Shown here: piece by piece, positions 2,804-61,700 of the stretch
Position numbering within the stretch: the first letter of the stretch is position 1
Layout: each line of letters starts with the position of its first letter
From: Octopus sinensis
Taxonomy: Eukaryota
Direction: 5' to 3'
Assembly: GCF_006345805.1 (NCBI RefSeq)
Contig: NC_043003.1
Coordinates: 111,600,001 to 111,664,000 of the forward strand
Length of the DNA stretch: 64,000 bases
Notes under the pieces: model-generated
Told to the model about the DNA's origin: nothing
Database searches by the model: none
The model's input: only the letters and a program-made list of their open reading frames with translations
Translations under genes and position numbers: made by a program

Positions 2804-3058
2804 TGAGAATGAGAGGCATGCTTATATATATATCTATATATATATACATACATATACATGTATAAATGTATGTGTATTTTTCAATGTGTACAAATAACAG
2901 GGAAAAACTAAATAAGGTTATAGAGTATTCATATAAGTGGCAAGGATATTACAACCTACTTGCAAAAGTAGAAATTCCAGGGTTAAGTGAAAAGTTTTTC
3001 CATAACATAGATAAATTAGGAAAGGGAGTCAAATGTAGGTGTTATTCAAATCTTTATA

Positions 3059-3146
3059 CTTCCGACATATGTTTCGAAGAAAACATTGATATTGTTCCGG
3101 AGGGAAAAATATGATGTATGACAATGCAATCATCTCGTCAGGGAGA
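3059..3146 (-). ncRNA. Type I hammerhead ribozyme with long stem II
   Basis: Minus strand reads ctcc-CTGACGA-gatgattgcattg...caatgttttcttc-GAAAC-atat-GTC-ggaag. Stem III is the palindrome ACATATGT. Homologous to 7495-7583. Confidence 0.7.
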
Positions 3147-3333
3147 AAAAGAGAAACAAAACACATCAATAAACCACTGATGAACGCTGGCGAGTTATTT
3201 TTTAGATAACCGTTAATAGATAGAACGTCAAATGTAATTTAGTGAAAGAGAAGAGAAGAAAGAAAGAAATTAACAGAAAATTAAGAGTGGAAAAATAGGG
3301 TGATAGATGAATAGGAATAAAGCTTGAAAGCGT

Positions 3334-3367
<34 letters not shown>

Positions 3368-4286
3368 AGAGAGAGAGAGAGACATACACACGCACACATA
3401 TGTATATATATATATAGTGGAAATGAAAGACAAGAAGACAGTTAAAGGTCGATATTTAAAGATTGGTAGACATTATTTATAGCACCTAAAAGTATGTTTT
3501 GCACATGTGTAGAACGATAAACGCGCCCTTTATACATGTATACAAGAGGTTTCTCCGCGAAAAGGATGTGTAATTGTCCTTCGCTACAGATCAGGCAAAA
3601 AGAATTATCTTTATCGTATGCGAAGGATCTAGATAGAATGTTCCATACACAAACATAACACTTATAATAATTGTGATTGCAGGGTTTAGAATAACTGTCT
3701 CTTTAAGAATTCATGTAGAAGTAAATATGTAATACGCACATGTACAGTTATAACCCAAGGTAAAAATCATATTTATATAGGTTGAACAGAAAATGCAATT
3801 ACAAAATGTGTCACGACCCACTTTCAGGTATAAACAGAGATTTAATTCTACAGGATTAAGTAAATTTATCTGACAATTAAAGGATAATGATATTAATTTT
3901 GTTCTTAAATGAGATATAATTGCTTCGGTACTATCTTATAATGTCAATAATAAAAATGTCTTTATAACTAAAGTATTCTTTATTCTTTCGTCTAAAATTA
4001 CCTTACCCAATCTTAGAAATGAGAAGAGTAATACCTGTGTTCATGCGGGAAATTATGTATATTCGAAATTCAAATAATGTGTTTATCTCTCTCACACACC
4101 CCTTATCACTGCTACTATATTGCATGGTACGTTCAAGGTAATATAATTACTTATGAACACATTTTATAAAATGAATACTAAATATTTCATATTTTATATT
4201 CAGATAACAATAGTTTTATTTACACGTTTTTACAGATATAGCCAACTAATATTTTTTTTAATATTACGGTATTATACCTAAACATG

Positions 4287-4362
<76 letters not shown>

Positions 4363-4402
4363 CATATACATATATATACATACATATGTATGTATATACA
4401 TA

Positions 4403-4473
<71 letters not shown>

Positions 4474-5339
4474 ATATATATATACATGTGTCTAGATAAC
4501 ATTACCCTTCATTTGGTATAGGAATAATTTTTGATTAGTTAAGTATTACTTTATCTGTTACTATTATTTTTCATGATAATCTAAAACGTTTAGAAAAGTT
4601 ACACTTTACTTCAGTTATTCATAGCAACAATCTCCTAAATAATATTATTTTTAGAGACATAAGAGCAGAATATCGGGTTATAGAAATTTTAAAAAGAGAG
4701 AGCAAGGCACTAATATCGAACCGAGAAATTGATTGTTACATTAACTAATCAGTGTTCACATCGTTGACAGTGTGATCGGTACGGGAAAACGTCCTAATTA
4801 ATGCTGCTAATCAGTTTGTCCGATATGTTCATGATTGTGATAGACATGTTTATTATCATGTCACTGTATATCTATTACACTGTGCATTCCATTCAGCATT
4901 AAGTTCTGTTCTTAACCCTATTATGTCTTGCAATATAAGGGATGTGGCAACCTTAGTGACAATTAGTAACGGTGAAAGTTTTCCTAAACACACACACATA
5001 TACACACGTCTTGTTGTCTCTTTGATACGACACTGAGGGCGTACGTTCTTAATACTCACAGTTAAATAAGCAATAATTTATACGTTCATATTATTATTCA
5101 TCTTACATACTTTGTTATTTTCATGCAGTTGTGTTCAAAATCGTATTGATAATAACTTCTTTAAAAATAAGAGTAGTGAAGATCCATATCAGAAAATGCA
5201 TGTTGTATGAATCTAAATGACGCTCCTCAGCATTAGAAGAGGCAAGAAATATTCATTCTGCACTGGGAAATGAAGTGTTATACTATCAATGCTTTATCCT
5301 GATCCGCTTGGGAAATTTACAATTTACTTATTTCTGTGG

Positions 5340-7494: not shown

Positions 7495-7583
7495 ACTTCC
7501 GATATATGTTTCGAAGATATCACTGATATTATTCCAAAGGAATAAAATGGTGTAAAACAATGAAATCTTCTCTTCAGGGAAGT
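7495..7583 (-). ncRNA. Type I hammerhead ribozyme with long stem II
   Basis: Minus strand reads acttcc-CTGAAGA-gaagat...atcttc-GAAAC-atat-ATC-ggaagt. Stem I and the base of stem II are perfect 6-bp helices. The cleavage triplet is AUC, versus GUC in the sister copy. Confidence 0.75.
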
Positions 7584-11464: not shown

Positions 11465-11515
11465 AGCTTCTACAGGACTAGAACTGTTTCATTCAAGAGA
11501 AATCTTCAGGAAGCT
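11465..11515 (-). ncRNA. Type I hammerhead ribozyme
   Basis: Exact reverse complement of 13045-13095. Confidence 0.85.
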
Positions 11516-13044: not shown

Positions 13045-13095
13045 AGCTTCCTGAAGATTTCTCTTGAATGAAACAGTTCTAGTCCTGTAGAAGCT
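13045..13095 (+). ncRNA. Type I hammerhead ribozyme
   Basis: agcttc-CTGAAGA-t-ttc(tctt)gaa-t-GAA-ACAG(ttctagtc)CTGT-A-gaagct. Stem I is 6 bp and stem III 4 bp. Cleavage is predicted after GUA at 13089. Confidence 0.85.
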
Positions 13096-14606: not shown

Positions 14607-14742
14607 CATACATAATGATAGATTGATAATGATACGAGGAGTCTAATGCCTTTTCTTGTGTAACCATGTGTATGTTAAATAAAATAAGAAGACAAAACCG
14701 TGGCTGTGTGAAATTTATAGAACATTTAGAAAATGAAAGGTA

Positions 14743-14790
14743 GACTTACAGCTGTTTCTGGGATATTGGGTTATCCCTTCATCAGAGACG
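14743..14790 (-). ncRNA. Minimal type I hammerhead ribozyme
   Basis: Minus strand reads gtct-CTGATGA-a-gggata(acccaa)tatccc-a-GAAAC-agct-GTA-agtc. Stem III is the palindrome ACAGCTGT. An upstream minus-strand peptide FIYTTRTLGMN (~15035-15070) resembles a PLE GIY-YIG C-terminus. Confidence 0.75.
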
Positions 14791-15269
14791 ATATGAGAGA
14801 AGTAAATAAAGGGAAATGATAGAGTTCAATATAAGGAACAGGATGGATATATGAAATATAATTGGAAAAAAGAGAATGAAAATAGAAGTGAAAATTTATG
14901 AAGTTCCATTATCTAAGGAAAGGACTCTGTAGAATGGGTAGAAATGCTTCTTGTCCATAGTATGTAGATCCCGATAGTAGTTTATATTTTGCTATTACAA
15001 GTTGATAACGTTGCGCCATGATTTCCTTGTGCTATTCATTCCAAGGGTTCTTGTGGTGTAGATGAAATTTTGAGAATGTACTGCCAGGGGTAAGTAGAGA
15101 GAAAAAAGAGAATAGATGTGTATTTTAGGAGGAGAATGATATTAGTCAAAAGGAATAAGGGCAGAAAGAAGAAATGAGGATAATAGCAATGAGGAACTTC
15201 TTACTGATAGACACGATCCATAAAATATCAACGGCTGTAGTAGCCAACGACCAATGATAGACATTGATG

Positions 15270-15450: not shown

Positions 15451-15840
15451 ATTAGTCTTACAAAGAACATCCCACATCCTAAACATAATATTACCAATTC
15501 AATTATATAACCCCAAAAAACAATTAACAAACCAAGATGCTCTATATCGCAAATATCCAGTAAAATAAACAACCGCCAACAGGACAGTACACAGCAAATA
15601 GCAACATTTCCATTAAAGACACATCGCATAATACAAACACTAATACAACAAAAGATTGCAACGAAATTTCATTGAAATTTCATTAAAAAAAACTGACGCA
15701 TTAAAATCAGAAAGAGTTCACACGCCGACAACTCGGATGTATAGCAGGCGATGCAGTCGAAATTTGCCTGAAATTACCCGAATAGTAACAATAATAATGA
15801 TAATAAAAATAATAATGGTAATAATAATAATAATAACAAA

Positions 15841-15917
<77 letters not shown>

Positions 15918-15922
15918 TAATA

Positions 15923-16736
15923 ATAGACAAAGAAAAATCCCAGCAATGGTTGAGAAGCTCAGGACTCAAAGCAGAAACAGAGGGAGTTTTAATTGCAGCA
16001 CAAGACCAAAGCCTCCCCACCAGAAATTACCAAAAACATGTAATGAAAAGAAATATTACAAGTAACTGCAGAATATGTGGAGATGGACAAGAAACAATAA
16101 ATCATATTATCTGTAGCTGCCCAGTCTTGGCTAAGAAGGAATATATTCACAGACATGACAGAGTTGGAACCTACATACATTGGAAGCTATGCCAACATTA
16201 TGGAATAACAACAGAAAAAAGATGGTATAGGCACACACCAGAAAAGGTCACAGAAAACGAGAAAGCAACCATACTCTGGGATATGCCGATACACACAGAT
16301 AGAGAAATTAAGGCCAACAGACCAGATATAGTTGTCAGAGATCATGAAGAAAAAAAATGCTTTCTAATTGATGTATCAATACCGGCTGATGACAACGTGT
16401 CTCTAAAAGAAATGGAGAAACTCTCAAAATACAAAGACCTGGAAATAGAGGTAACTAGAATGTGGAATCTGAAAAGAGAAACAATTCCTATCATAGTAGG
16501 TGCATTAGGCATGATAAAAAAATATTCAGACAAATACATAACAACAACACCAGGACTTACAAACACATATAACATACAGAAAATTGCACTACTAGGCACT
16601 GCACACATCCTACGCAGAACACTTTCCATACAATAACCATCAGAGCATCACAACAAATCACAGCACATACCCAAGGCACACAGAGCTGTGCTCGGTAGTG
16701 AAGTGAAAGCACGCTATAAAAATAAAACTACTGAAT
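15923..16736 (+). mobile_element. 5'-truncated R4/Dong-like RLE non-LTR retrotransposon with intact C-terminal frame and ~100 bp 3'UTR
   Basis: Open frame to the stop at 16636 with AAQDQSL, the CCHC knuckle CRICGDGQETINHIICSC, RHD, RPD...IDVSIP, KLSKY and ALLGTAHILRRTL. (TAA)n on both sides. Confidence 0.93.
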
Positions 16737-17577: not shown

Positions 17578-19200
17578 GGAGAAAACGAGTCACCTTAGAA
17601 GATTCCCCTTTTAATATTAACTCCAGGGAATACATCAATTGAGTGCAATTTGGTGGTCCACTCTCTCATTCTTTGCTTCAGAAAATTTGCACACATTCAG
17701 CGATCCAAGATTGAGGCATCACATCATATGCCTACTTAAAATCAATCCAACCTTTTACAATGCCTTAAAACTGGTTTTCGATGACCAAGTGATGCTTGGT
17801 ATCCTGAGAACTCTTCCTACGTTCTTTTGGTTGCTTTTGTAGTATTTCTTCCTGCGCCGAGAAAGTGTTTGTCTTTGCCGCACATATTCCAGTGAGTATC
17901 TTCCAGATTATGTTTAGGCATTCTATAGGACTGTAGTTTCAAACAATATTGCCCTGTCTTCTATCTTCCATTATAAACGTTGTCCTCCCAGTTACCATCC
18001 ATACGGCGACACTGTCCTCGTTGAATTGAGCTGCTGGTCTTTCATGCACTGTCTGGCATATCTTCAGCCAAAATCCATGAATCCCATCTGGTCCGGGAGC
18101 TTTCCAGTACTTTACCCACTTCTTCTTTCACGTCACCCCTACTCATGACGTTATTCCTTTGTTTCTTTCTTCATTATATTTCTGTCTGGATAGTTGCTAT
18201 CCACATTGCATCCCTTTCATGCACGACATTGTTTCCCCATAATCCACTCCAGAACTCCAATTTAACGTCCGGGAGAATTGCTTCGGGTAATTTTTTAATA
18301 ATCTGTTCTCCTCGAACTGCTTATTTCTTTTCACATATCTTCTGATCTGCTGGCTTTTTGCTATGATCCTCTATTTCAACAGCTCTATTACTGCATCAAA
18401 CCCGTTCTTCCGTATTTTATATTTCTTCCCTAATTTTTCTTGATCGTTATTTTTCTCATTTTTCCAGTTTCCTCTTAACCATTGTTCAATTTTTCCTATA
18501 TCTTGCCTTGCCCGCATTATATCGCTTTCAATGTGTTATTTCCACCATGGTACATTTGCTCCAGCATTTTTTGATTTCTTAAGTTTTAATTTCTCCTCAG
18601 CAGGCAGTGCAATAGGCCAGTGAAGATTCCTTGTTTGTGTTATATCCTCCGCCTGGATATATGGTATGACAGTATTTATCTTTTGTGTTACTTTATTTAT
18701 CATACTCCTATCTACCCTTTTCATTCATGGAGATTTTTTTCTTCTGAAGCATTCATCAAGTCAGTGAGTCATCTTTGAATTTCAAGCAATTCATTATCTT
18801 GTTGGTTCATTTCCCCCGCATTTCCACCCACCACAGCATCAGGGTTGACTGTATAACATTCCTGTTCCTCATCCTTAACAGCCCCATCACCATTCCGTTG
18901 TTCCTCCTGTCTACACCTCTCTCTGCTTTCAGCTCCTACCTCTCTGTTCACAACTCCAAATATCCTTTGTAGGCCGTCCGCAGGGTCTCCCAGACTCTAA
19001 GTAATCCGAGATATTTCTACTACACTTAAGTAACCCTTCCTTCTAAACACTCTCACTTATTTAATTAGTTTATTTTCTGACATTGGGCATATGTCTTCTA
19101 CATCCAAAATTCCATGGTACGTCGGCCTACTCCGCGACATTTTTCCAGGTTTGCTCGTTCATGATATTTCAATAAGTGTATCGTACTCTTCATTCATCCA
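17578..19200 (-). mobile_element. Decayed R4/Dong-like LINE, N-terminal region through RT motif 4
   Basis: Minus-strand peptides WKAPGPDGIHGFWLK, WIDFKxAYDVMPQSWI and VNIKRGIFxGDSFSP. Confidence 0.85.
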
Positions 19201-19880
19201 CTTATGTCTGTCTATAAAATTTCTGACACCCAGAAAGAGAGTGGAAAATGTGAACCACTTGGTTAGTGGATGTGAGAGCATTGCACAAAAAGAATACAAG
19301 CGCCGCCACGATAAAATGTGTTTGTAACTTCTTTGGCTCTTATGCTGTAAATACCAACATGATGTAACAGAAAACTGTACGAGCATGTACAAAGTAAAGT
19401 TATGCAGGAGGATGGAAAAGTAACGATACTCTGGAACTATCATTTTCAGTCGGATCGTGTAATCGAACACCGTCGGCCGAATATTGTCATATTGAATAAG
19501 AGAGAGAAATACTGTCAGATCATTAATGTTTCCATAACAAATGATATGAATGTTGTGATTGAAGACGTTGAAAAAGTCAACAAGTACTCAGGATTGAAAC
19601 TGGAAATAGTAAGACCGTATGGAATGCAAGAGGGTAATGTAAAATTGATACCATTGGTAATCGGAGCGTTGAGCTCAATCCCATTGAAACTTCAAGACTT
19701 CTTAAGGCAACTGGAAATTCCATGCAAGATTGATGTCTTGCAAAAAGCAACATTACTGGGCCCAGTACACATCTTAATAAAAGTATTATCTGTCAGAGGT
19801 CCTTGTTGTGACTTGACAGATGACTAAAAACTCCGGTACATTTTTACCTGCGCTGTCTTACGAAGGAATGAATAATTATA
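19200..19880 (+). mobile_element. R4/Dong-like LINE C-terminus (knuckle plus RLE)
   Basis: ENVNHLVSGCESIAQKEYKRRHD, ILWNYHFQSDRVIEHRRPNIV and LQKATLLGPVHILIKVL. Confidence 0.88.
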
Positions 19881-21206: not shown

Positions 21207-21258
<52 letters not shown>

Positions 21259-21531
21259 TACATTAGAGATAAAACCACTTTTAGGCAAATCAAACAGTGA
21301 AAAACATAAACCAAAACATAGAAATAAAATTAATCAATATAACATACATAATATATAAAAAATATAATTCAAAATTTAAAATATTTAAATTTAAAGTTAA
21401 AAATTTAAAATTATTAATTTATATTTAGAAATTCATATATATATATGTATATAGATTTATTTATTTTTTTTATTAAATATATATAACTATCAAAAAGTAT
21501 AAAAAGTTTAATATAAGATAAAAAAGTAAAG

Positions 21532-21629
21532 CCACTACGATCGTTTCCTGCCCAATAACCTAATTCGAATGACAATAATTTTAATTCATTTAATAATTCG
21601 AATTATGGTTATAGTCAATCTTCAGGTTA
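21532..21629 (-). ncRNA. Type I hammerhead ribozyme with long stem II
   Basis: Minus strand reads aac-CTGAAGA-ttgactataacc-a-taattcgaat...attcgaatta-ggttattgggcag-GAAAC-gatc-GTA-gtgg. Stem III is the palindrome ACGATCGT. Stem I is eroded. Confidence 0.7.
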
Positions 21630-22124
21630 ATGATAATAGTTAAATAAATAATCAAATATATTTAAACACTAATTTTTAAGAAATAAATAATATAATAATT
21701 TTTCTTATAAAAAACTCTATTATCAAACTAGAAACTTTAACGATTATGATTATGTCATACAATAGTTTATAATGTTAAATATTAATTTTTAAGGTAAGAA
21801 TAGATGTATTTATCTATTCAGAAATAATAAGACTTTTAAAAAGACATAATAAACCCACAAATAATCTAATCACAGTTACAGTCAATATCTAATTTACCTC
21901 TAATATTAAAAAAAAAGGTAATCACTATTCATATTATTAAATTTAATTTCAAATCAAATAATTATATAATATTTGAATAAGAACTAAATTATCACTGAAT
22001 ATATATAAAAAATGTATATAAATATAAGAATTAAGATCTAAAATTATCTCTATAAAAAATATATATATATATAAGGACTTATAATAAAAACTTAAAAACT
22101 AATTGTTCATTATTAAACACCTTG

Positions 22125-29860: not shown

Positions 29861-30230
29861 TATATATATATATATATAGGTATGTATAGTATATTGTATA
29901 ACCCAGCGGCAATAAAAGAAATGCAGAAAATTTTGAACACTGTTTCAATTATATTATCTATCCATCAGCAAATTTGTTCTAGACTAGATTAAACTCGCAA
30001 TATAACGATAAGAGGAATTCTATGTAAACCTGCGTGGAATGAGATCGGAGAGAAATGCCAAGAGCAAAATTCGAGTCTCGTATCCTGTTTGTGCGTGTCT
30101 GGGTGTGTGTGTGTGTGTGTGTGTGTGTATCTGTGACTTTGGAAGTAATGTCAGGAAATATAGCATGCATAATATCATTATAATTTCAACGATATTTTGT
30201 ATATGTGAATGTGTGTTCAGATGTATGTAG

Positions 30231-30425
30231 GCATCTGGCTTAAAATACGAGCTCATGTGGTCGATACTTAGACATGCGGGTCCCTACAGCACTTTATCCC
30301 GCAAATGCCAGCTATGTTCTGAAGAGTCAATCTCAATAATATTTACAAAGGATTGCGTTATGAATAAATTTGCAGAAAAACTACCCAGGTGACTACACGC
30401 AGCTAAACACACATTCACATATTAA
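30231..30425 (+). pseudogene. Penelope-like GIY-YIG endonuclease C-terminal remnant
   Basis: LMWSILRHAGPYSTLSRKCQLCSEESISIIFTKDCVMNKFAEKLPR*LH fits the PLE C-terminal pattern WxIL..A.PY...SKRCxLC..E...I....LNK..E...CRH. Confidence 0.75.
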
Positions 30426-30956
30426 AATCCTGACCATACGTAATTAATTTAACACCCACAACTCTGGTTAATCCACCTGAACTTAATGGACTGTATTGGA
30501 ATAACACTTATTAAGACATCCAATTTTACAAACTATATATATATATATATATATTCATTCCTATATGTCAGTGTATTTCACAAGTGCGAGTGTATATGGT
30601 TTTGTACGCACATGCGTATCTCGGTCTACGTAAGAATGTATGCACATATGTACCTACATATATGAGCTTATGTATATGTAGACATATATATTGTACGTAT
30701 CCGTGTGTATTTAGATGTAGCTATATGTATATATATATATATATATATATAGATGTGTATGTATGCATGTATGTATCTATATATATATATATATATATCC
30801 TTATAAAATAGTGTACAATTAAACACAAGAGAAAAGTACTCTTTAACAGGTATTTTTTACAGGATAGAAGAATCAAACAAAGCTGCCAAAACGACAATTT
30901 AATAGCAACTTTCGAAGGAAATGAAAGATAAAAACCTCTTATCTTGTTATTTTTTG

Positions 30957-31026
30957 CGTTTATACCTAGATTTCAAATTTCTTTAGCAAATAAGAATATC
31001 TGCTGGGCGAAATCTCATCAGTAACC
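30957..31026 (-). ncRNA. Hammerhead motif, slightly degenerate copy of 32090-32159
   Basis: Minus strand reads cggtta-CTGATGA...GAAAT-ctag-GTA-taaacg. It lies in a direct repeat, 30803-31031 versus 31954-32163. Confidence 0.7.
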
Positions 31027-31133
31027 GGCTTCAAGAACTAACGCATAAATCAGAGACATATATTCAGTAGATAATTCGGCGGTAAGTAGATAATGGCAAG
31101 CTGATTCTTCGAGAATGCTAAGATTATATCATA

Positions 31134-31196
<63 letters not shown>

Positions 31197-31224
31197 AATT
31201 AAAACAGATTAGGAGATCGAAAAT

Positions 31225-31267
31225 CCACCTGACGAATGTCATTGAAGACATGAAACGATTGTAGTGG
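31225..31267 (+). ncRNA. Minimal type I hammerhead ribozyme
   Basis: ccac-CTGACGA-atgtc(attgaa)gacat-GAAAC-gatt-GTA-gtgg. All three stems pair and the core is canonical. Confidence 0.88.
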
Positions 31268-31358
31268 CGGTTTATTTCTTTATATTAAAAATGTTTATGT
31301 ATTGATTAAGTCTTTCCTTGTTTGTTTTGCAAAATAGTGGTTTTGTCTCGAATTAATG

Positions 31359-31412
<54 letters not shown>

Positions 31413-31663
31413 TATATATAATATATATATTTATTCATAATTAATCAATATAGGGTGGCAAAAAATTTGTAGAATTTTTTTGCCACCAGCGGCCTAGTGG
31501 GAAAAATTAAATAGTCATAGACCATTTATAAGTTCAACATCACAATCAAGGAACGGCCATAATAGGCCATTCACCCACTAGAAATAGCAGCCAAAGCTTC
31601 AACCGCAAAATAACATTAATTCCGCAAACCAGGAGAAAATTAAAAAAACATTTACCCTGTAGT

Positions 31664-31766
31664 TTCTTATACGATGCACCGTTTCATCTATTGTTTAATG
31701 GTAAATTAACCTGATTAAATTAAATCAAGCCAATCTTCCATAGGCCGATAGATTCGTCAGTAAGAA
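31664..31766 (-). ncRNA. Type I hammerhead ribozyme with very long stem II
   Basis: Minus strand reads ttctta-CTGACGA-atctat...atgg-aagattggcttgatt(taattt)aatcaggttaattt-a-ccat...atagat-GAAAC-ggtgcatc-GTA-taagaa. Confidence 0.88.
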
Positions 31767-31840
31767 GCAGCCAGATCGGAACAGATATTATCACGAGGCA
31801 CTTCCATCCCTGCCTCGGCAATATCTGACCTGATATATAT

Positions 31841-31874
<34 letters not shown>

Positions 31875-32089
31875 GGGTAGCGAATATTCGTTAGAAATAT
31901 CACCAACAATGGCCTAGCATGTATAAATAGTCAATAGACAACATATTTTTAGTATAAAATAGTGTACATTTAAACACAAGAGAAAGTTACACTTTGCTAG
32001 AAAAAGCAGCCAAAACGGCCAAAACCACAATTTAATAGCAATTTTCGAAGGAAATGAAAAATAAAAAACTTTTACCTTGTTATGTTTGG

Positions 32090-32159
32090 CGGTTATACCT
32101 AGGTTTCAAATTTGTTAGCAAATAAGAATATCTGCTAGGCGAATTCTCATCAGTAACCG
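32090..32159 (-). ncRNA. Type I hammerhead ribozyme
   Basis: Minus strand reads cggtta-CTGATGA-gaattcgcc-tagca...tgcta-acaaattt-GAAAC-ctag-GTA-taaccg. Stem III is the palindrome ACCTAGGT. Confidence 0.85.
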
Positions 32160-32244
32160 GCTTGCTCGCTGAATTTTGAAACATTATAACATCATTATTG
32201 GTCAGGTGTTATTTGTCTCTGATTTATAAGTTAGTATTTGAGGC

Positions 32245-32315
32245 CGGTTACTGATGAGAATTCGCCTAGCAGATATTCTTATTTGCTAAAGAAATTTGAA
32301 GCTTTGGTATAACCG
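32245..32315 (+). ncRNA. Inverted hammerhead copy with a mutated core
   Basis: cggtta-CTGATGA...GAAGC-tttg-GTA-taaccg. GAAA has become GAAG. Confidence 0.7.
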
Positions 32316-32705
32316 CAGAAAGTAACAAGGTAAGAGGTTTTTATTTTTCGTTTCCTGGTCAAAATATTTCTTTTATATATTTACTTTTATAATTGGAAGA
32401 TGCCAATTAAAATTTTAGATTCTTGGCAGATAGTCACTAGTTTTACAAACCAGTAGAGTTGAAAATGTGAGAACTTAATTGTTTTCAGAATACTAACACA
32501 ACGTGTGTTAAATTTTTGGTTAGACTTATTATTTGGTGCAGATGGGATCATAAACACTGTTACGAAGCAGCAATTAACTCGAATTAACTCGAAAATGCAC
32601 AGCAAGGCGCAAAAATTGCAGTGTACAAGAAATTGAAGCAGAATCATATGACGGTCCATAAATAGAAATACGTGATTATACATATATATATATGAATATA
32701 TATGA

Positions 32706-32778
<73 letters not shown>

Positions 32779-33699
32779 TATATATATATTATATATATAT
32801 ATATATTACAGTCCTATATTTAAGAGATGAGGGATTATTTGCATAATTACATTTGACGTATGTTGTCGTAATTTTTGTTTGTTGTTAACACAACGTTTCC
32901 GCTTATATATGTGTGTGTTTCTTCGCATGCCTGTTTATCACAGCGAATTGCACGAACATATTGGCATGAAAATATTGTAATCTGAGTACCTTTATACAAA
33001 CTGCTATGCTTTTCACATATACGTCGTCCGGGCGACAGTCTCGTGGCTACTCTAGTGAGGCTCATTGCATTCTAGCGCTTCATTCTATAATCGATTTTGT
33101 GTGTACTTTTTAACTTTATATGAACACATCAGTGCATCGCAGAATCGTGAACCTTATCCGGTGTTGTAAATACACTGCTGGTTGCCTTGTCCATTTAATA
33201 CTTTCTTGAGTCGCCTTTTCCCGATCTCTGAGATAGCACTCGGAAACCACGCGTTCCCAAATGTTGTGCATGAACCTGGCAACATATTTGGCTCAGCGGA
33301 AATTGTGTGTTCGGTATTCTGCAATCACATCGTCTACACAGATCCGTTCTTGAGTTATATCATTTCGGATATCTCTTGCAATCTTTCCCTAGTGGGGAAC
33401 TTTCCATGGCTCCATACGTCTTAGCCAAACAATATGAACATATAACGATAAAAAGTGAAGAAGAACAATAAGATTAAAATGAAAACAATAAGTAAATGAG
33501 ACAGAGAGAGATGCATCGGGATATATTATTCTAATAGGTATCTTAAAACAGTGATGAATTCAAATATTAATGTAAATATTTCCATTATACCAGGTTGACG
33601 CAAACGTTTCTTCTCATATTTCAAGATCTAATTAATAATTAAGTTGTGTATGACAAGGATCTATTTATGAAAATATATCCCAATCTGTTCTATTGCCTG

Positions 33700-35177: not shown

Positions 35178-36050
35178 TATACACATATATACATACATAC
35201 ATACATTCATACATACATACATACATACATATATGCATATATATAAATATATATATATATTCTTTTATTCTTCGATATATTTAATGAGGCAGGCTTGAAT
35301 ACTAATGAATCGTATGAGCATACATTTTCTTCAAATCATTATCAGTTCATTTCACGTATTTGATTTGATTTCCATTTAACCGTAATAATATAAACGCGTT
35401 TGAAAATACACTTACATAGACATGCACATACATATATGTCCTATATCTTCATGTGTGACGAGCTAAGTTCTGGTTGCCACTAGTAAGCTGTTGAACTGAA
35501 AATAAAGTGAAATCAACTGAGATTATAGCCATCTTGAGATTGAATGAGAGAATTTCGTTTTATACGAAGTTTAATGGTGATATTTTAGACTTTGGCAACT
35601 ATGTTGAAACGCCGGACATTTTTCAAGTGAAGTGTACTCCATTCACAGCAGTGATAACTTCCTTCCAATGATAATGAGTGTAAATGTCGGTGTGAAACTA
35701 TCCCACTGATTAGTTTAAGTAGAAATAAATACATTTGAGAATGATCCAAGTGAGTCTGCTACGCAAAGAACATACAGCAATATGCAGGCAACCATACATA
35801 ATGTAATGAACCTAAAATAAGCCCAATCAATTGAAATTACACGAGTAATGACACGGAAAGTAATTAGGATTAATGAAAATTCCTGTTTAATGGGGCAACC
35901 GGGAAAACAGTCGGAGAGAGCGAATGAATCTGATCTTTCTTAGCTATGTTCATGCAGGGATTCCTTTTACATTATTGCGTGATCGTGCCGGCGAAACAGA
36001 TTCTAATATAACCTATAAGTTTTCTTTTACAGAGAATGTATACATGTATA

Positions 36051-36457
36051 GGCGCGGGTGTGGCTGTGTGGTAAGTAGCTTGTTTACCAACCACATGGTT
36101 CCGGGTTCAGTCCCACTGCGTGGCACCTTGGGCAATTGTCTTCTACTATATCCTCGGGCCGACCAATGTCTTGTGAGTGGATTTGGTAGACGGAAACTGA
36201 AAGAAACCCGTCGTATATATGTATATATATGTATGCGTGTCTATGTTTGTGTGTCTGTGTATGCCCCCCTAGTATTGCTTGACAGCCGATGCTGGTGTGT
36301 TTATGTCCCTGTTACTTAGCGGTTCGGCAAAAGAGACCGATAGAATAAGTACTGGGCTTACAAAAGAATAAGTCCCGGGGTCGAGTTGCTCGATTAAAGG
36401 TGGTGCTCCTGCATGGCCGCAGTGAAAAGACTGAAACAAGTAAAAGAGTAAAAGAGT
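36051..36457 (+). mobile_element. Full-length tRNA-derived SINE family A
   Basis: A box tggctgtgtgg, B box gggttcagtccc, an internal TA/TG tract and a (gtaaaaga)n tail. Several copies in the window. Confidence 0.92.
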
Positions 36458-36868: not shown

Positions 36869-37278
36869 CTTTTTTACTATTTTTTTCTACTTGTCTCAGT
36901 CATTTGACTGCGACCATGCTGGAGCACCGACTTTAGTCGAGCAAATCGACCCCGGGACTTATTCTTTGTAAGCCCGGTACTTATTCTATCGGTCTCTTTT
37001 GCCGAAACGGTAAGTGACGGGGACGTAAACACACCAGCATCGGTTGTCAAGCAATGCTAGGGGGACAAACACAGACACACAAACACACACACATACATAT
37101 ATATATACATATATACGACAGGTTTTTTTCAGTTTCCGTCTACCAAATCCACTCACAAGGCATTGGTCGGCCCGAGGCTATAGCAGAAGACACTTGCGCA
37201 AGGTTCCACGCAGTGGGACTGAACCCGAAACCATGTGGTTCGTTAGCAAGCTACTTACCACACAGCCACTCCTGCGCC
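36869..37278 (-). mobile_element. Full-length SINE family A, inverted relative to 36051-36457
   Basis: Reverse-complement match along its length. Confidence 0.92.
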
Positions 37279-37834
37279 TATTTATATTTTGATTTTGTAG
37301 TACATTCATAGTGCTTTAAAGTAATGCACAAACATTAAACTACTGCTAGATTCTGCGTTATCGGATAATCTCATTAAGATAAATCTAAAAGATTTTAGCC
37401 TCCCTACAAATGCTTACATATATTTTCAAAAGCACTTTTCGTTCTCAGTTTAACTTAAATTCCCTCAGCCTTTGCAGATGATTATATAAAGTTTCCCTCC
37501 ACTCAAATGTTCCCTAAATTTGAAAGGAGTGTCATTATAGCAATATTTTATTAGTATTGTCCAAAATAATTCTATCGTGCTACTTTGTACCATAAAGCAA
37601 TATACTTCATTATTTTCATTGACATGCTCCTTTCTTTATCTTGTGGATTCTAATTTATCAAAACTTTGTTCCTAATTAATGTCTGTGTCCTCTGCTGCAT
37701 GACAACGAGAGATTTTTTAACCTATTTTCCAGGCAAAATTGTTAATTAAATCATGCCACCAGTAAAAATCTCTATCAATTTTAGTTAATATTTGTGCCAG
37801 TTTCCTCTATTCTCTTTTGTTTTATATTATTCTC

Positions 37835-45932: not shown

Positions 45933-46580
45933 ATATGAGTAAAGAGTAAAGAACCCCTTTGCTGATGAATGACCATGGGATTACACCTAGAAAGTCGCTC
46001 TCCGAGGCATAAGTCCGGGTGAGGTTCTTTATGGAAGACCAGCAATATCCCATGCATACGAGCCACCACCTATGTTATCCAGGGGAAAGGGAAAGGCCGA
46101 TACAGCTTAGCACCAGTGACATAGCAGCTCATTTCTACAGCTGAGGGTGCAGAGTAGAAGATACAAGCCCTTGTAGCGCCAAGAACCACCTGAAGACTTG
46201 CTACAGTGGTATATTAGAATCAGACAAAACATATCATTAACACAGACAGGATCCGAAGTCATTCATTTTAGTACAACTCTAGTCTAAACTTTAAAATCCT
46301 TCAAATACCCGAATTGCCTTTACTCCCTGGCCCGATCCTTTGATGATAGAAGAAAAAACAATGAAGAATAGTCCACAGCCGGAGGAAACCACATTAGCAA
46401 GTAGTAGGATAAATATGTCAAAATATGACAAGGAAGAAAAAAGTTTCTAAATTGTTATGGAGAGCACAAATGGGCATAAAAGGAGTATTTGATAAAATAA
46501 ACAGTGAACCACAAAAAGCTATGTTGCATTACAAAAATAGTGATTATAAAGATTAGGATGATGATATACATCCTCATTAA

Positions 46581-50653: not shown

Positions 50654-52552
50654 TGATATACCTCTAAGAAAAACACGATATAGGAGAAAATTAAGATTCT
50701 ACAACAAAGGCACCGATGGAATAAAGGAATGTACTAAGAACAACAATCATAGCAATAACCGCAGTATACTAGTTAACGGAAAAAGAACAAATAATAGCCA
50801 GCTTAGGTCTAGAGGAAAGATAAGGATAGGAAGTTCGAACAATTGGAAAATAACCACAGAAAACCAGCTAGTATGAGGTTAGGAGTGGTTTTAATGGGTT
50901 AGGCGCACATAAACTATTATGTAACTGTTATGACATGAGTTGCACAAGTAAGGTATAAGAATAGTATTACTCAAATATTTGGATATGGTTATCTAGAATA
51001 GCATTTCGCAGAATTAAAATTTTCCCACACAACGCACTCCTACTACTCCAAACGTAGTTACGATACTAAATGAACACATTAACCTATGCAGACGATTACC
51101 GCCGTCAACTGTGGCACTATGAACTACTCTGTCAACTACTGATAGTTCACAGTTTCTTTATTTTATTGATATGCGTTAGTTCACTTTCAGTCACTTGTGC
51201 TGGTCAAAATCCTTCCAGAACGCTAACTTAAGTAATACCCGAAACATTATTAGGCTTACTTGGATAGGGGAGGGAACCGCTATGAAAACCAGTCCACTAG
51301 AAATACACAAATAAATAAGAATTCTAATGACAAGAGAACCAAATATAAAAACCTGGGAAATAGGTTAAATACTTATACTATGTACTTAACGAAAACTGCA
51401 GACAACCATACCAGAATGTTCTAGTCAAAATATAACAAGTAATATCGAGTGGTATATAATTTCCTTTGGAAAGAAAATTCTTTCCAGCATTCTTAAATTG
51501 TTCTACTAGGCTTTGAAAAATATTTTCCAAAAAGTGGTAAATATTAGCCGGAACCTTGCGCAAATAATAGCACACAACGCGAGTAAGTAAAGATATTTGC
51601 ATGAGAATACTGCCAGTAATAACCTGAATATAAATAGTGAATTAGCAGTAAATAGTAACGATGTAAATATATTTGGGAAAAACAGAGACACGAAAAATAG
51701 CTATAAGGGAATCACTAATCAAAGGAATACAACTGTAAGTAACTCAAACGTGAGACTAAGAAGAGAAGGCAAGAATGTTAGAAAGTGCAAAACCTAGAAT
51801 GTCAACAATGAAAATATCGGAAACATCCTGGAACATAGACGAAGATAGTTAGAGATTACCAGAAATGAAAACAAAATAGAAAATAATCATAGATTTACAA
51901 GGCTAATGACTGTGATTGCGGAATGGAGAGGTAATGTCCCTTAAATTCCGAATGTAAGGTTAAAAATGTGGTTACAGCATATGAATCAAAGTAAATTAAT
52001 TTGGCCACTGAAGGATAGTAACAAAATATATTCAATTCGCTGGGGTATTGCTTAAAGCGTCTTCATGCAGGAAAATATACTTTAAAAATATTCAAATAAA
52101 CGTATTACACTTACTATAGTAAGAAACATTATTAATTATTAGAATAAAACTTTTGAAACCGAAAAGCAAATAATAAATCAAAATTAATTGAATGCCTCTA
52201 AAACTAAGAATTTTCTCCTTGAGTAGTAAAGTTCTTATAGTACTAAAGTATGAGCCGAAAATTTAATCCAGCCTTGACCTGTTTTTAGGATTATATTTCG
52301 CTTCACTTACCACACTTAATGGAAGCGAACACTACGTCGATGCCTCAACAATTATTTATAGTTACACCTATGCCAGCAAAAAAAAACATTTTATTAATTC
52401 AACATGTTAATTCTTTTATTCAACGTGCTCATACCTACAAAGACACCAAGATGAATATCTAACTGTGCAGTCGATGCAGCTGAAACGGGCGTAAGTCCAG
52501 AAAAGAATGCTGTAAATAAATGATTAATGAAATCATAAATGTGAAATGTCTT

Positions 52553-52900
52553 GCAAGAGTGGCTGCGTGGTAAGACGCTTGATTTGCAAACACATGGTTC
52601 CAGGCTCAATCCTATTGCTTGGCAACTTGTGGGTGGATTTGGTAGGGAAAACTGAAAGAAGCCCTTTCGATATATGTATAAAGAAATAGGTGTTTGTATT
52701 TGGGTGTCTATGTTTGTCCCCCTCCCACCATCGCTTGACAACCGATGTTGGTGGTTTAGGTCCCCGTAACCTAGTGGTTCGGAAAAACAAATCGCTAAAA
52801 TAAGTACTAGGTTAGCGACGAATAAGTCCCCAGGTCGATTTGTTCGACTAATGGCAGATCTCCAGCATGGCCGTAGTCAAATGACTGAAACAATTGAAAT
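52553..52900 (+). mobile_element. Older SINE family A copy
   Basis: gagtggctgcgtggtaag...gtggatttggtag...ctccagcatggccgtagtcaaatgactgaaac. Confidence 0.85.
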
Positions 52901-53827
52901 GATAAAAGAATATATGAAATATTTTATAATTATATACATGATTATAGTCAGGAGTCAGCAAAGTGCCTCGCCACATACTAAATTAGAAAGGAAGCTAATG
53001 TCTTTTCAACTACCAAAAGAATCTTCGAGACAGTAACACTCTTTTATATGTACGTAAAAAGAAAAAATTACGAATATACAACAACTTAGGTTCACCTGAT
53101 ATTATCTATCTTTTTGAACAGTAAAGTAGGACTGCAATCATGTGAGACGACTCACCGAATAGGTTTGGTGAAGCGTTCTAATGTTACCACAGATCAGAAA
53201 TATTCATCTCCCCATACAACGCTAGTTATCCATTCTATATATTAATTTCCAAAGTTTACCCCCATTTTTATTGTTATTTTCTTACGATAGAAATGATTTG
53301 AATAATTCTTGTTTGCTCTCCTTGTTCATACATATATATCCGTGTAGGAGTATATGAGTTGTGTGTGCGCATCTTGGTACGCGTGCGCATGTGTATAGCT
53401 GCTCATCGGCTTGTATATCACATCCGAATTATTTTACTTTGAATAAATTACTCATGGGTTTTCAGATATCAAGAGAAATTCGGAAAGCTGCACCATATAT
53501 GCTATAAAATCATAGCAGTATACAGCAGTGAGTATATCGTTTGATCTCCAGCCCTCATAACAAAAGAAATAGTTGTAGATATGCTAGTTTATTTCATTGT
53601 AACAATGTCCAATTTGCTTTTTCTTTGTTCGATCGTATTTAGCTAAGATCTTTTTACCCTGATTTATGTGATATTACGTTCCTTTCGTTGGCTACATTCT
53701 CGCAAAAATAAATATATCGCAGAGGTAAATTCAATCCGTTTTTATACTTTAGAAACCAATGGAAATTCCTCATGAGAATATAATAAAGAGCTAATCATAT
53801 TACAGCAAATGCATTCTGTTATTTTAG

Positions 53828-58695: not shown

Positions 58696-59240
58696 ATATG
58701 TATATGTCCATATATGAGAAGCATAAATATCGAACTGAATGTCTTCGTATCGAAGCGTATTTGCATTGCAACGTTTCCTTCGGAGTTCTCCACGTTGCAT
58801 CATCCTCAAAATTCATTTGTAACCTATGGAGTGATATAATATGTGGGTGAAATTCTTACACGAAAACAACGTAGAAAGCCATCGTGTGCATATGTATTTT
58901 CCAGTAAGGGTGTGTAATTGTGTGTCTTATTGTCACCGCTAGACAAACGTTGTTGCATTACTTACATCTATTTAAGAAAATGTTTCCCAGACTACACCAT
59001 TCATGACGTTCACTAGAACAGCTGACTATGACACAATTATATATATGTATATTTTGTGAGAGTATGAGTATGTATGTGTTTAGGTGTATACATACGCGTA
59101 CGTATGTACATACATAATTCGATAGTTTGTTCCCATTTCAGTTTACATATACTAATATATATAAATGGCGGTGCCCCAGCATGGCCACAGCTCATGAGCT
59201 GAAACTGGAAAAATCAAAATCAAAATCAATCATATATATA

Positions 59241-59464
59241 TACTCTTTACTCTTTTACTCTTTTTCTTGTTTCAGTCATTTGACTATGGCCATGCTGGAG
59301 CACCGCCTTTAGTCGAACAAATTGACCCCGAGACTTATTCTTTCTAAGCCCAGTACTTATTCTATCGGTCTCTTTTGCCGAACCGCTAAGTGACGGGGAC
59401 GTAAACACACCAGCATCGGTTGTCAAGCAATGCTAGCGGGACAAACACAGACACACAAACACAC

Positions 59465-59508
<44 letters not shown>

Positions 59509-59852
59509 CATATTATAATTAAGGGCTAAAGAAGGTTATTCTATAGCCAATACCCTGATTATCCACTTATAATCCACTTGTTACGGGAAAATTGAACTGA
59601 AAGCGGGCAACTAACCTTTAGAAAATTTAAATTTCGTTATCTCTATATTGAATCAATTTCGGAATTAATCCCTATAAAGGATATATTCTTCTTCAGTAGA
59701 GCTTTCGAGGGAACATAAATAAATTACTCACATGCGGTCATGGAAAAAGCAGAAGCTAAAAACACAAATACATTTAAGTTAATATACTGCCACACTTTTT
59801 GATGGAATCCTTCCTTTTCTCTAGAGGAAGGGACTTCATCCTATATTGTTAG

Positions 59853-59916
<64 letters not shown>

Positions 59917-60077
59917 GACAGGGTTCTTTCAGTTTCCGTCTACCAAGTCCACTCACAAGGCATTGGTCGGCCCGGGGCTATAGCAGAAGACACTTGCCCA
60001 AGATACCATGTAGTGGGACTGAACCCGGAACCATGTGGTTGGTTAGCAAGCTACTTACCACACAGCCACTCCTGCGC
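59241..60077 (-). mobile_element. SINE family A interrupted by an HHR-bearing insert
   Basis: 59241-59470 and 59905-60077 are collinear with the uninterrupted 36869-37278 copy. Confidence 0.92.
59641..59701 (-). ncRNA. Type I hammerhead ribozyme
   Basis: Minus strand reads ctcta-CTGAAGA-agaat-at-atcctt(tat)agggat-ta-attcc-GAA-ATTG(att)CAAT-A-tagag. The cleavage triplet is AUA with a compensatory U-A pair in stem III. Confidence 0.85.
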
Positions 60078-60717
60078 TTATAATTCATATTTTATTATTT
60101 CCTACTGTCTGGCCACGGATCACTCATAAACATTATGTATTATTAATACCAAATGTCACACAACATAAGCTAAAGTAGTTACCGGGGCAAACACGTATCT
60201 CAGCGTAAGAAGAGGAAAGTTGTTTCAATGCTACAATAAACTTCTACGCCCTGCTTCAGCATCCATTCTTTCTTTTTCTTGCTCTGCATCGCTACGCACA
60301 TACGTATCGATGTTTATGCCATATACGTCTATATTTATGTATATGATTGCGTGTGAGCGAGTGTGTGTGCGTGTTCAAGAGTGAATATGGTAGTATTCCA
60401 TAAGTGAAGAAACTTTGGGTAACACTTTTCTTCATTTTGATAGCTAGTAACGTATTATTTTACTAACTTTGGTATAACAGTACTATCGTACGTCCACTCT
60501 ATATCGTTTTGTTTGCGCGAACCCTAACTCTCTGCAAATCTTGCTGGGTGCCACCGATATGCAAAGTTTTCAGTTTTATCATTAATCAAAAGCATGGAAC
60601 TGAGTATTAACATTTTGCTTGCTAACTGATGAAGAATTAGTGTCCAGCTGTGTCTGTCCTACAAGTACAACATTAAATATTTAATACAGTTTAATTTATT
60701 ATTATTATTATTATTAT

Positions 60718-61044: not shown

Positions 61045-61700
61045 TTTATAAAGGCAAGGAAAATAATGAAGAAGATAATTAATTCACTTACAAAGTTCAG
61101 CTAGATCCATTATTAATTAATTACAAGCATATGAATATTGACAAATGAATGAGTGAATATAACTGTATCCTTACAGCTGTTTCTACTTTAGGGGATCAAC
61201 ACACCAAAGTTAACACAGCAAATAAAGTTTATACACAGATTGTACAAAAATTGAACAAAAATTAGGAATTTGACAAAACTTGAACCTCGAAGCTTCATCA
61301 GAGAGTCCATAATAGCAAGAATTAAATAAGTAAAAAAGTAAAATAAAATAATAAAAATACAAAAGAATTTTAAAATGTAAATTCCAAGACAATATCCAGC
61401 AGCAATGAGATCGCATCTGATGAAGAAATGGGTTCAATTTTTGTTCACTTTTTTTTTTGTCCATTTTCCGTCCTACTTCTGTTCCATGTTTGTACAATAT
61501 TTTTGTATAATCTTGGTATGATGAGTCAACTTGGCGTGTTGAGCCCCCAAAGTAGAACCACCTGTAAGAGTAGAGTTATATTCACGGATTTATTCTTATT
61601 TATTTATTTATTCATATTCATATGATTGCAATTAATTAATAAATGAGTCTAGCTGATCTTTGTCAACTAGTTTTCTCCATTTTCTTCCTTGCCTTATATA
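61045..61700. mobile_element. Old foldback PLE-like element with two inverted, degenerate HHRs
   Basis: 61045-61306 and 61412-61700 are diverged reverse complements. Minus HHR 61167-61306 reads actct-CTGATGA...GAAAC-agct-GTA. Plus HHR 61412-61571 reads CTGATGA...GAACC-acct-GTA-agagt. Confidence 0.75.

Follow-up and report, generated by a model that had tools for sequence, protein, structure and literature searches.

The five hammerhead ribozyme motifs clustered in the 64-kb stretch of DNA that was analysed (the window) are very probably the 3' ends of Penelope-like elements (PLEs), old and 5'-truncated, that accumulated by target-primed reverse transcription into (TA)n. The motifs, the clade of the adjoining endonuclease remnant, a TA bias on the 3' side and the same layout at other loci of the Hydra clade of PLEs are established. 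The features are listed in Table 1.

Table 1. Features of the hammerhead cluster and related features in the window
Feature	Position	Strand	Remarks
Second module B copy, decayed	21257-21630	-	same end point as B, at TA
Decayed hammerhead-like motif	29930..29974	-	A9 changed to G, helix II unfolded; weak, 12.8 bits, E 0.4
Inverted endonuclease C-terminus copy	30194..30238	-	matches 30385-30428; 37/45 identical, 0 of 300 shuffles
PLE GIY-YIG endonuclease, C-terminal 64 codons	30231..30425	+	Hydra clade; profile iE 9.9e-19
11-nt family-B match	30470..30480	+	helix I 5' strand and CUGA; equals 31222-31232
Octopus-Naiad-like 3' terminus	30486..30526	+	by-eye likeness to PMC8557442 File S5; abuts TA
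(TA)n tracts	30534..30798	.	30534-30553 and 30722-30798, decayed TA/TG between
Module A1	30802..31062	-	family A; lacks the last ~78 nt that A2 has
Hammerhead A1	30957-31027	-	family A; helix II 40 nt; predicted cut after 30963
(TA)n tract	31136..31196	.	
Module B	31197..31357	+	family B; holds hammerhead B
Hammerhead B	31225-31267	+	family B; helix II 16 nt; predicted cut after 31263
(TA)n tract	31360..31434	.	faced by 3' ends of B and C
Module C	31453..31832	-	sister family of A; 12-bp hairpin at 3' terminus (31454-31487)
Hammerhead C	31664-31766	-	family C; helix II 68 nt, long hairpin; predicted cut after 31670
(TA)n tract	31833..31874	.	
Module A2	31875..32163	-	best-kept family A copy
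Hammerhead A2	32090-32159	-	family A; helix II 39 nt; predicted cut after 32096
Module A3	32210..32358	+	inverted partner of A2; 3' end missing
Hammerhead A3	32245-32315	+	family A; GAAG core, broken palindrome
(TA)n tract	32677..32806	.	closes the cluster

Type I hammerhead motifs were found with strict and relaxed descriptors at all five coordinates given in the first-pass annotation. The strict descriptor recovered four of them (30957 was missed), compared with a mean of 0.1 matches per 64 kb in 100 shuffles. The relaxed descriptor recovered all five and three others, of which one was judged real and two (41137 and 62279) were treated as chance; shuffled sequence gave 1.15 matches (20 shuffles). 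Every cluster motif contained CUGANGA, a foldable helix II and a GUA cleavage triplet, and formed 4–5 of 5 helix I pairs, with one mismatch in A1 (30957). Four of the five had GAAA and a fully self-complementary helix III insert. A3 (32245) had GAAG and a palindrome of 4 of 6 in helix III, and is with this changed core probably inactive. The helix III inserts spanned 6–10 nt, that of C being a 10-nt palindrome. Since they are palindromic, cleavage is predicted to occur as dimers: helix III was predicted to be stable only as a dimer duplex, which is lost in A3. Constrained folds lay 2.0–3.6 kcal/mol above the minimum free energy in four motifs and 7.9 kcal/mol above it in A1.

Rfam gave no hammerhead match at the gathering threshold in the whole window, and no ribozyme among 28 weak matches in 29.9–32.8 kb. 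A hammerhead model built from 10 Hydra-locus motifs listed three of the five: B (26.6 bits, E 3.8e-5), C (17.5 bits) and, weakly, A2 (13 bits, E 0.34). A1 and A3 were unlisted at E ≤ 10, and low-scoring matches of this model were treated as chance. Helix II measured 39–71 nt in 7 of about 13 window motifs; such long inserts, missed by Rfam, are a mildly unusual feature.

The description of the region as a ribozyme hotspot was correct in that the clustering was significant (P about 0.001–0.01). Five of 13 positions fell within 1.4 kb (P = 0.0012), or four of 11 when inverted pairs were counted once (P = 0.011), both under a uniform null without TA density. However, the clustering is moderate, because at least eight further hammerhead-like motifs occur elsewhere in the window. 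The decayed motif at 29930..29974 lay just outside the cluster, with its 3' end ~35 nt from a TA tract ending at 29894.

Ten of the 13 window motifs had TA within 250 nt on the 3' side, and four had it on the 5' side (background 17%). Five of seven homology-defined ends lay within 7 nt of TA, against a background of 2% within 25 nt. The distance from the 3' end to TA was 5 nt for A1, 3 nt for B, 2 nt for A2, 2 nt for the second B copy and 19–34 nt for C; the 3' end of A3 did not abut TA, lying 322 nt away. The proposal of repeated insertion of PLE termini into TA repeats fits the endonuclease clade, the 3'-side TA bias and a comparable stack at another locus (L004, below). Insertion into one single TA tract cannot be shown, because no target duplication was visible in the TA around the modules.

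The window contained three copies of module A, two of B and one of C. No cluster hammerhead module was continuous with an ORF at this locus. Modules C (31452) and A2 (31875) had been noted as sharing a terminus yet carrying different hammerheads. The common terminus was confirmed (50/78 identical, 0 of 300 shuffles). The two modules are diverged relatives, on sequence colinear sister families, because their alignment runs without a break from the terminus into the ribozyme (160/266 columns). This continuous similarity rules out a ribozyme swap between them. Module C had a z of −3.86 and its terminal hairpin a z of −2.87. A Helitron reading of the hairpin was dropped, as it has no CTRR end and abuts TA; the resemblance of the terminal hexamer of C and A2 to a telomere repeat was discounted, with only 4 bases that are not TA. 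Judging by helix II, which is longer in A and C (39–68 nt) than in known Hydra motifs (11–31 nt in the reference-locus Hydra ends), these two families may come from another TA-targeting PLE clade. Modules A and C had no DNA similarity to 11 Hydra loci beyond TA-rich stretches, and a family-A stretch had no exact match in GTDB.

The three family A copies lie within 1.5 kb, their pairwise identities are alike (105/116, 103/118 and 103/116), and an A/C profile scan found no further copy of either family in the window. These observations would suit a cluster that grew largely by local duplication and inversion from one or two insertions, with TA slippage assisting. Yet the copies differ in both 5' and 3' breakpoints and have no common flanking DNA beyond the element, and the family A copies form a star-like tree with 6, 6 and 10 private differences. 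Local duplication cannot explain module B, module C, the endonuclease or the Naiad-like end, which are too divergent for that. It would account for the A copies at most, and we consider it very improbable. Within the preferred reading of separate PLE insertions, A2 and A3 (32090/32245) are probably one insertion with its inverted 5'-truncated copy.

The PLE endonuclease C-terminus that had been recognized upstream of the modules was upheld and could be assigned to the Hydra clade. It corresponds to positions 641–703 of a 707-position full-length profile and matched P0031 (E 5e-11), which by eye is nearly the same as Hydra-2_Amil. W, CxxC, E, N, E and H are retained, an in-frame stop replaces the Cys of CxH, and the remnant does not include the GIY-YIG motif itself. 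In a phmmer search, 24 of 26 matches were to this C-terminal domain, the other two being unrelated bacterial repeat proteins. Among the 120 full-length relatives listed, YRDD was present in all 120, DK[TS] in 117, the linker CxC..C in 118, the terminal N..E..CxH in 119 and RWK in 81. These motifs are the hallmarks of the Hydra clade (PMC8557442 section 11). The more N-terminal part of such a protein, comprising a reverse transcriptase with RWK and DKT, a CxCX5C linker and a GIY-YIG core without CCHH, is present in the relatives and absent from this locus. Pfam held no family for the remnant and gave none above cut-off for eight relatives; a word-index protein search with the remnant returned nothing, whereas an exhaustive search did find relatives.

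Three more Hydra endonuclease remnants were found in the window, two of them head-to-head between TA tracts. A linker-bearing remnant lay at 3648–4074. DNA similarity was not significant among the three endonuclease regions, nor between the 3' regions of the remnants and the modules. The inverted copy at 30194–30238, partly CA-rich and of low complexity, is likely an inverted 5'-truncated PLE copy; a leftward extension of the inversion was not significant (143 of 300).

Downstream of the endonuclease, the first-pass annotation had recognized tccacctga as the start of the hammerhead at 31225 as well. The match is real and extends to 11 nt, a length reached by 2 of 5000 shuffles and 1 of 1118 genomic control windows, but only the first four core bases are kept. 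The family-B ribozyme beyond CUGA is missing. The stop is 51 nt away from this CUGA, a shorter distance than the 83–210 nt of the 13 reference ends. The bases that follow fit a Naiad-like end better than module B, and an internally deleted family-B copy was unsupported outside the 11-mer (79 of 300 shuffles). The Naiad-like pattern, drawn after both sequences were compared, was matched in 0 of 100 shuffles; a 10-mer common to 30486–30526 and Naiad ends occurs once in the 584 kb supplement of PMC8557442. As the best local link between hammerheads and PLEs, the flank thus provides a helix I/CUGA match, but with the ribozyme's first bases only and then a Naiad-like terminus. A complete sense-strand hammerhead is absent between the endonuclease stop and the 3' end at this locus, which we interpret as later breakage.

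Hydra-clade PLEs target (TA)n and carry canonical hammerheads (PMC8557442 section 11). In a reference set of 11 Hydra loci with 14 ORF ends, a CUGANGA core lay 83–210 nt downstream of 13 ends, the 14th having only 116 nt of sequence, and (TA)4+ lay within 420 nt of 7 of the 14. At the unrelated Hydra locus L004, the ORF is followed by five hammerheads of three families within 1.1 kb, between TA tracts and including two inverted pairs. One module of this stack (3513–3706) matches the 3' end of the L008 Hydra element at 97% identity, and the Hydra element in L006 has a family-B helix I 96 nt after its ORF. Inverted ORF pairs occurred in 3 of 11 loci. Truncation at the 5' end with an inverted partner, seen in A2/A3 and at 30194–30238, was found likewise at L001, L004, L006 and L007.

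We infer the following steps for the stacking in TA. The GIY-YIG endonuclease of the PLE would nick a TA tract, and the reverse transcriptase would copy the PLE RNA from its 3' end, with the hammerhead 90–215 nt upstream, and stop early. The split tract would leave TA on both sides as a fresh target. Since the reverse complement of (TA)n is again (TA)n, later copies could land there in either orientation. Inverted copies with a truncated 5' end are typical of PLE insertions, and both A2/A3 and the 45-nt inversion beside the endonuclease would be of this kind. The ribozymes would be passengers from the parent RNA, and the copies have since decayed by about 5–8%.

The modules could instead be monomers of PLE-derived, non-autonomous retrozyme-like elements, mobilized in trans as small self-cleaved RNAs. 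Their sizes (160–380 nt) are within the retrozyme range (monomers of about 300 bp in the accessible part of PMC7229834), A, B and C have no attached ORF, and the accessible part of bioRxiv 10.64898/2026.07.22.740005 contends that PLE ends gave rise to retrozymes, which are found dispersed as monomers. Against this, no head-to-tail hammerhead array of a single unit was found in the window, and no module boundary coincides with a cleavage site. The 5' ends of A1 and A2 differ (31062 and 32163) while their 3' ends abut TA, a signature of 5' truncation, and the module common to L004 and L008 is demonstrably the end of a full element. We regard the retrozyme-like origin as improbable.

We give almost no credence to a retained functional ribozyme array, such as one that makes a regulatory RNA for the host or supplies circular RNA. 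It is true that A2, C and A1 stand in series on the minus strand, that four of five cores are intact, and that the helix III inserts of A1 and A2 are cross-compatible (duplex −8.8 kcal/mol) and would release a 1133-nt fragment. However, the motifs show ordinary decay, including the A3 core change and the A1 helix I mismatch, orientations are mixed, and at L004 plain transposon ends show the same layout.

Under the preferred reading of stacked PLE ends, TA-repeat insertion by ribozyme-bearing PLEs is likely a known pattern, seen here in new families. The cluster is of modest importance: it supplies hammerhead families not described before for a PLE clade that has been little sampled. Together with L004, it shows that mixed groups of ribozymes form where PLEs with a TA target pile up their 3' ends. 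Because Rfam and short-helix descriptors miss long-helix-II motifs, the ribozymes of such genomes have probably been undercounted. Cleavage by the PLE hammerhead is dispensable for insertion in vitro and is protein-assisted (PMC11167929). Natural long-helix-II variants are new test material on the role of this ribozyme, which the decayed cluster does not settle.

A more far-reaching interpretation seems unlikely to us: a genome in which PLE hammerheads with a long, structured helix II are very numerous yet unrecognized, together with compatible ribozymes in TA stacks, retrozyme birth and Hydra/Naiad template switching. If it were true, about one motif per 5 kb would mean a count rivalling or exceeding the 126,000 given for axolotl in the accessible part of PMC7229834. 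Read-through RNA cut by an A2/A1 heterodimer would yield a 1133-nt chimeric retrozyme-like circle, retrozyme birth caught underway, and a switch of template from one PLE clade to another would be recorded in the Hydra/Naiad-like junction.

Non-LTR retrozymes, as presented in the accessible parts of PMC7229834 and bioRxiv 10.64898/2026.07.22.740005, also have type I hammerheads in short non-coding units and a proposed PLE origin. They are head-to-tail repeats of one unit, whereas here the units differ, the strands are mixed and TA lies between. Metazoan PLE hammerheads (Cervera and De la Pena 2014, PMC4209133) are likewise of type I, with palindromic helix III positions and predicted dimer action. 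They are mostly single motifs from truncated PLEs, and opposite-strand pairs 100–700 bp apart have already been reported (PMC4209133). The present cluster differs in having several families stacked in one TA-rich spot, helix III inserts of 6–10 nt and long helix II inserts; the spike moss PLE-X1 is also listed with long inserts.

Published consensus sequences were compared with the window by eye, without alignment statistics. The last ~45 nt of the octopus Naiad PLEs (Naiad_Ovul and Naiad_Obim; PMC8557442), whose stated target is (TA)n, resemble 30486–30526. This by-eye likeness covers ~40 nt only and is joined directly to a Hydra-type piece, with no Naiad ORF, which would carry an N-terminal endonuclease, at the locus; Naiads are described as lacking canonical hammerheads (PMC8557442). 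In the supplement of that paper, where FASTA line breaks could hide a match, none of four window hammerhead motifs was found and four tail motifs gave no telling match; A–C were accordingly rejected as a published octopus Hydra or Naiad consensus.

The closest resemblance is to the C-terminal EN+ PLEs of the Hydra clade (Craig et al. 2021, PMC8557442), such as Hydra-1_Obim of Octopus bimaculoides and Penelope-13_HM. They have the same CxxC..E..N..E..CxH endonuclease end, a sense-strand type I hammerhead close to the 3' end and a (TA)n target, and an inverted 5'-truncated copy, as in this cluster, is listed for Penelope-13_HM. By eye, the helix II stem of Hydra-1_Obim resembles that of family B, and helix II measures about 12–26 nt in the published Hydra rows (n = 26), compared with 39–68 nt in A and C. 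The cluster differs from these elements in its families and in consisting of truncated ends only.

The first-pass annotation had called five hammerheads in the cluster, and all were recovered at their positions. A strict type I descriptor matched four of them, 31225(+), 31664(-), 32090(-) and 32245(+), with no other match in the 64 kb (null: 0.1 matches per shuffled window, 100 shuffles). A relaxed descriptor (null 1.15) additionally matched 30957(-) and three others, of which we judged 59641(-) real and two due to chance. The GUA triplet was present in all five cluster motifs, and helix I formed 4-5 of its 5 pairs. The helix III insert was fully self-complementary in four of the five (computed dimer duplexes −5.8 to −17.5 kcal/mol); in 32245(+), module A3, this self-complementarity was broken and the core contained GAAG. 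An Rfam search matched none of the five.

Modules A1, A2 and A3 formed a single family with 87-91% identity; over 120 columns, the copies had 6, 6 and 10 differences private to one of them. As a rough inference for an octopus host, a family A decay of 5-8% would correspond to roughly 14-23 My on the scale quoted in the consulted part of PMC13282606. The modules starting at 31452 and 31875 (C and A2) had been described as sharing a related terminus while carrying different ribozymes. The related terminus was confirmed, but the similarity ran on into the ribozyme: 160/266 aligned columns were identical from the ribozyme 3' half to the terminus (0/300 shuffles), so the pattern reflects divergence of sister families. 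Module B was unrelated to A and C. The second B copy had a perfect helix III palindrome and a helix II of 71 nt, and its tail carried about 160-190 nt of inserted AT-rich sequence. Within this copy, 21328-21341 has an exact 14-nt match of low complexity in 31434-31452, the 19 AT-rich nucleotides that separate TA from the C terminus. Stretches of the cluster assigned to no module were 31063-31135, 32164-32209 and 32360-32676, the last located where the A3 3' end is expected.

The endonuclease remnant was assigned to the Hydra clade of Penelope-like elements (PLEs). An exhaustive protein search with 30231-30422 (one stop read as X) returned 26 proteins, 24 of which had W, CxLC, E, N, E and mostly CxH; the other two were unrelated bacterial repeat proteins. 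A profile built without the remnant scored it at iE 9.9e-19 and retrieved 350 long proteins. Among the best 120 of these, the YRDD reverse transcriptase motif occurred in 120, DK[TS] in 117, the linker cysteines in 118, the terminal CxH in 119 and RWK in 81, all Hydra-clade hallmarks according to the sections consulted of Craig et al. 2021 (PMC8557442). The same sections describe canonical hammerheads in the clade and (TA)n as the insertion site of almost all families, and the supplement includes Hydra-1_Obim from Octopus bimaculoides. The remnant matched the last 55 residues of a full-length relative, P0031 (E 5e-11), which by eye reads nearly the same as Hydra-2_Amil. The earlier "GIY-YIG remnant" is the endonuclease C-terminus; the GIY-YIG motif itself is absent from 30231-30425. 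At 30194-30238, 45 nt of the endonuclease end recur in inverted orientation (37/45 identical, 0/300 shuffles). Elsewhere, the remnants 3469-3657(-) and 3648-4080(+) were arranged head-to-head, flanked by the TA tracts 3336-3416 and 4287-4484.

The endonuclease had also been reported to be followed by the start of hammerhead B. This stood as an 11-mer (30470-30480), reached at a ribozyme junction in 2/5000 shuffles and 1/1118 genomic windows (277/5000 shuffles for an 11-nt match anywhere in the modules), but not beyond it: the ribozyme breaks off directly after CUGA, and the flanks did not align with B. In one GTDB-derived Hydra element (L006), the same helix I sequence occurred 96 nt past the ORF. 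The stop-to-motif distance of 51 nt was shorter than in reference ends, and by eye 30486-30526 resembled the terminal bases of two Naiad elements, Naiad_Ovul and Naiad_Obim. A post hoc Naiad-terminus pattern matched once in the window (0/100 shuffles), and the 10-mer common to 30486-30526 and the Naiad end occurred once in the 584 kb supplement. The piece thus probably joins two PLE clades, and may have arisen by deletion or template switch.

Modules, hammerheads, endonuclease remnants and repeats in the window
Feature	Position	Strand	Basis	Remark
Module A1	30802-31062	-		hammerhead 30957, helix II 40 nt
Module B	31197-31357	+		hammerhead 31225, helix II 16 nt
Module C	31453-31832	-		hammerhead 31664, helix II 68 nt
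Module A2	31875-32163	-		hammerhead 32090, helix II 39 nt
Module A3	32210-32358	+		hammerhead 32245, helix II 40 nt
Second B copy, decayed	21257-21630	-		ends at TA, same point as B
Hammerheads, full core, helix I 4-5/5	3058-3147, 7495-7583	-	model + scans	further family, helix II 58-59 nt
Hammerhead, full core, helix I 4-5/5	11465-11515	-	model + scans	38.4 bits
Hammerhead, full core, helix I 4-5/5	13045-13095	+	model + scans	38.4 bits
Hammerhead, full core, helix I 4-5/5	59641-59701	-	model + scans	intact-looking, different family, helix II 29 nt
Hammerhead-like, helix I 3/5	14741-14791	-	model + scans	decayed
Hammerhead-like, helix I 3/5	21530	-	model + scans	
Hammerhead-like, core change	29930	-	model + scans	
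Half-core motif	46184-46211	+		B-like helix I, middle missing
Half-core motifs	60620-60642, 61411-61433	+		
Hydra-type endonuclease remnant	3648-4074 (also given to 4080)	+	profile	includes cysteine linker
Hydra-type endonuclease remnant, weak	3469-3657	-	profile	
Hydra-type linker/endonuclease remnant, weak	51833-52067	+	8-14 bits	
Dispersed repeat, abundant, ~250-400 nt	36048-36456, 36869-37281, 52626-52936, 59232-59491, 59893-60093			often adjoins TA

The proposed ribozyme hotspot was borne out in part. Five hammerheads within 1.4 kb gave P=0.0012 under a uniform null that ignores TA density (13 positions; 46184 counted, 29930 excluded), but further motifs occurred elsewhere in the window, and P was 0.011 once inverted pairs were merged. 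On the 3' side, 10/13 motifs had TA no farther than 250 nt away; on the 5' side, 4/13 did (background 17%). The inverted pair 11450-11698/12862-13110, 97.6% identical, carries one intact-looking hammerhead in each copy, its 3' side facing a TA tract; these two are the window's youngest ribozymes and those most likely to be active. The 3058 hammerhead lies ~320 nt downstream of the remnant 3469-3657(-) on the same strand, separated from it by a microsatellite; it could be that remnant's own ribozyme. The 59641 hammerhead belongs to a 330-nt module flanked by TA tracts.

The window is animal intergenic DNA: AT-rich (25-43% GC in most 1-kb blocks), dense in microsatellites (108 tandem-repeat rows) and containing broken LINE-like and mariner-like pieces. 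Broken C-terminal pieces of non-LTR retrotransposons (15644-16636(+), 19034-19827(+); zf-RVT below cut-off) are interrupted or adjoined by AAT repeats, and an inverted pair of ~690 nt (16874-17545/26382-27069) is 81% identical. The dispersed repeat is presumably SINE-like. Together with the match to a published terminus of an octopus element, this composition suggests an octopus-like host.

A scan of GTDB that used full-length Hydra proteins as queries yielded eleven loci. Since these bacterial MAG contigs hold Hydra-clade PLEs with TA tracts, they suggest animal DNA binned into bacterial assemblies. A hammerhead core lay 83-210 nt downstream of the ORF in 13/14 ORF ends, one of the 14 being a weak match that may belong to a different PLE clade; TA lay within 420 nt of the ORF end in 7/14, and 3/11 loci had head-to-head inverted ORF copies. 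Locus L004 nearly exactly repeats the cluster layout, with five hammerheads in 1.1 kb (within 3356-4646), in the order Hydra ORF end, hammerhead, TA, inverted pair (family 2), TA, inverted pair (family 3), TA. Its second-family module and the 3' end of the L008 Hydra element shared 97% identity along 199 nt. Ten motifs from these loci, with alignment and structure set by the analyst, showed strong covariation, with 94% of cells paired and double changes in 8/12 pairs (0/500 shuffles). A model from these motifs listed three of the cluster motifs, B at 26.6 bits, C at 17.5 and A2 at 13; A1 and A3 were not listed.

Motifs, endonuclease clade, TA polarity and analogous loci agree with the original proposal of repeated insertion of PLE termini into TA. 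The cluster modules are very probably PLE 3' ends, those of A and C from Hydra or another TA-targeting clade. The endonuclease would nick (TA)n, and reverse transcription would start at the RNA 3' end and terminate early. Since (TA)n is self-complementary, insertion could occur in either orientation, and the split TA tract could be targeted again.

The open-access literature, mostly scanned at listing level, yielded no families A-C, mixed-family stack description or cephalopod hammerhead census, while the ingredients of the cluster are all published. In the parts of each source consulted, the lizard Poseidon element undergoes target-primed insertion at AT-rich DNA, and its hammerhead needs protein for cleavage and proved dispensable in vitro (PMC11167929); PLE hammerheads have a palindromic helix III and are active as dimers, truncated PLEs leave single motifs, and pairs on opposite strands are separated by 100-700 bp (PMC4209133); and inverted truncated PLE copies are described (PMC8557442, PMC8969392). 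Retrozymes require tandem units (PMC7229834; bioRxiv 10.64898/2026.07.22.740005, same limitation), which the cluster lacks. Of about 13 window motifs, 7 have a helix II of 39-71 nt, longer than the about 12-26 nt of the 26 published Hydra rows, which stem from a descriptor search; long helix II inserts are listed for the spike-moss PLE-X1.
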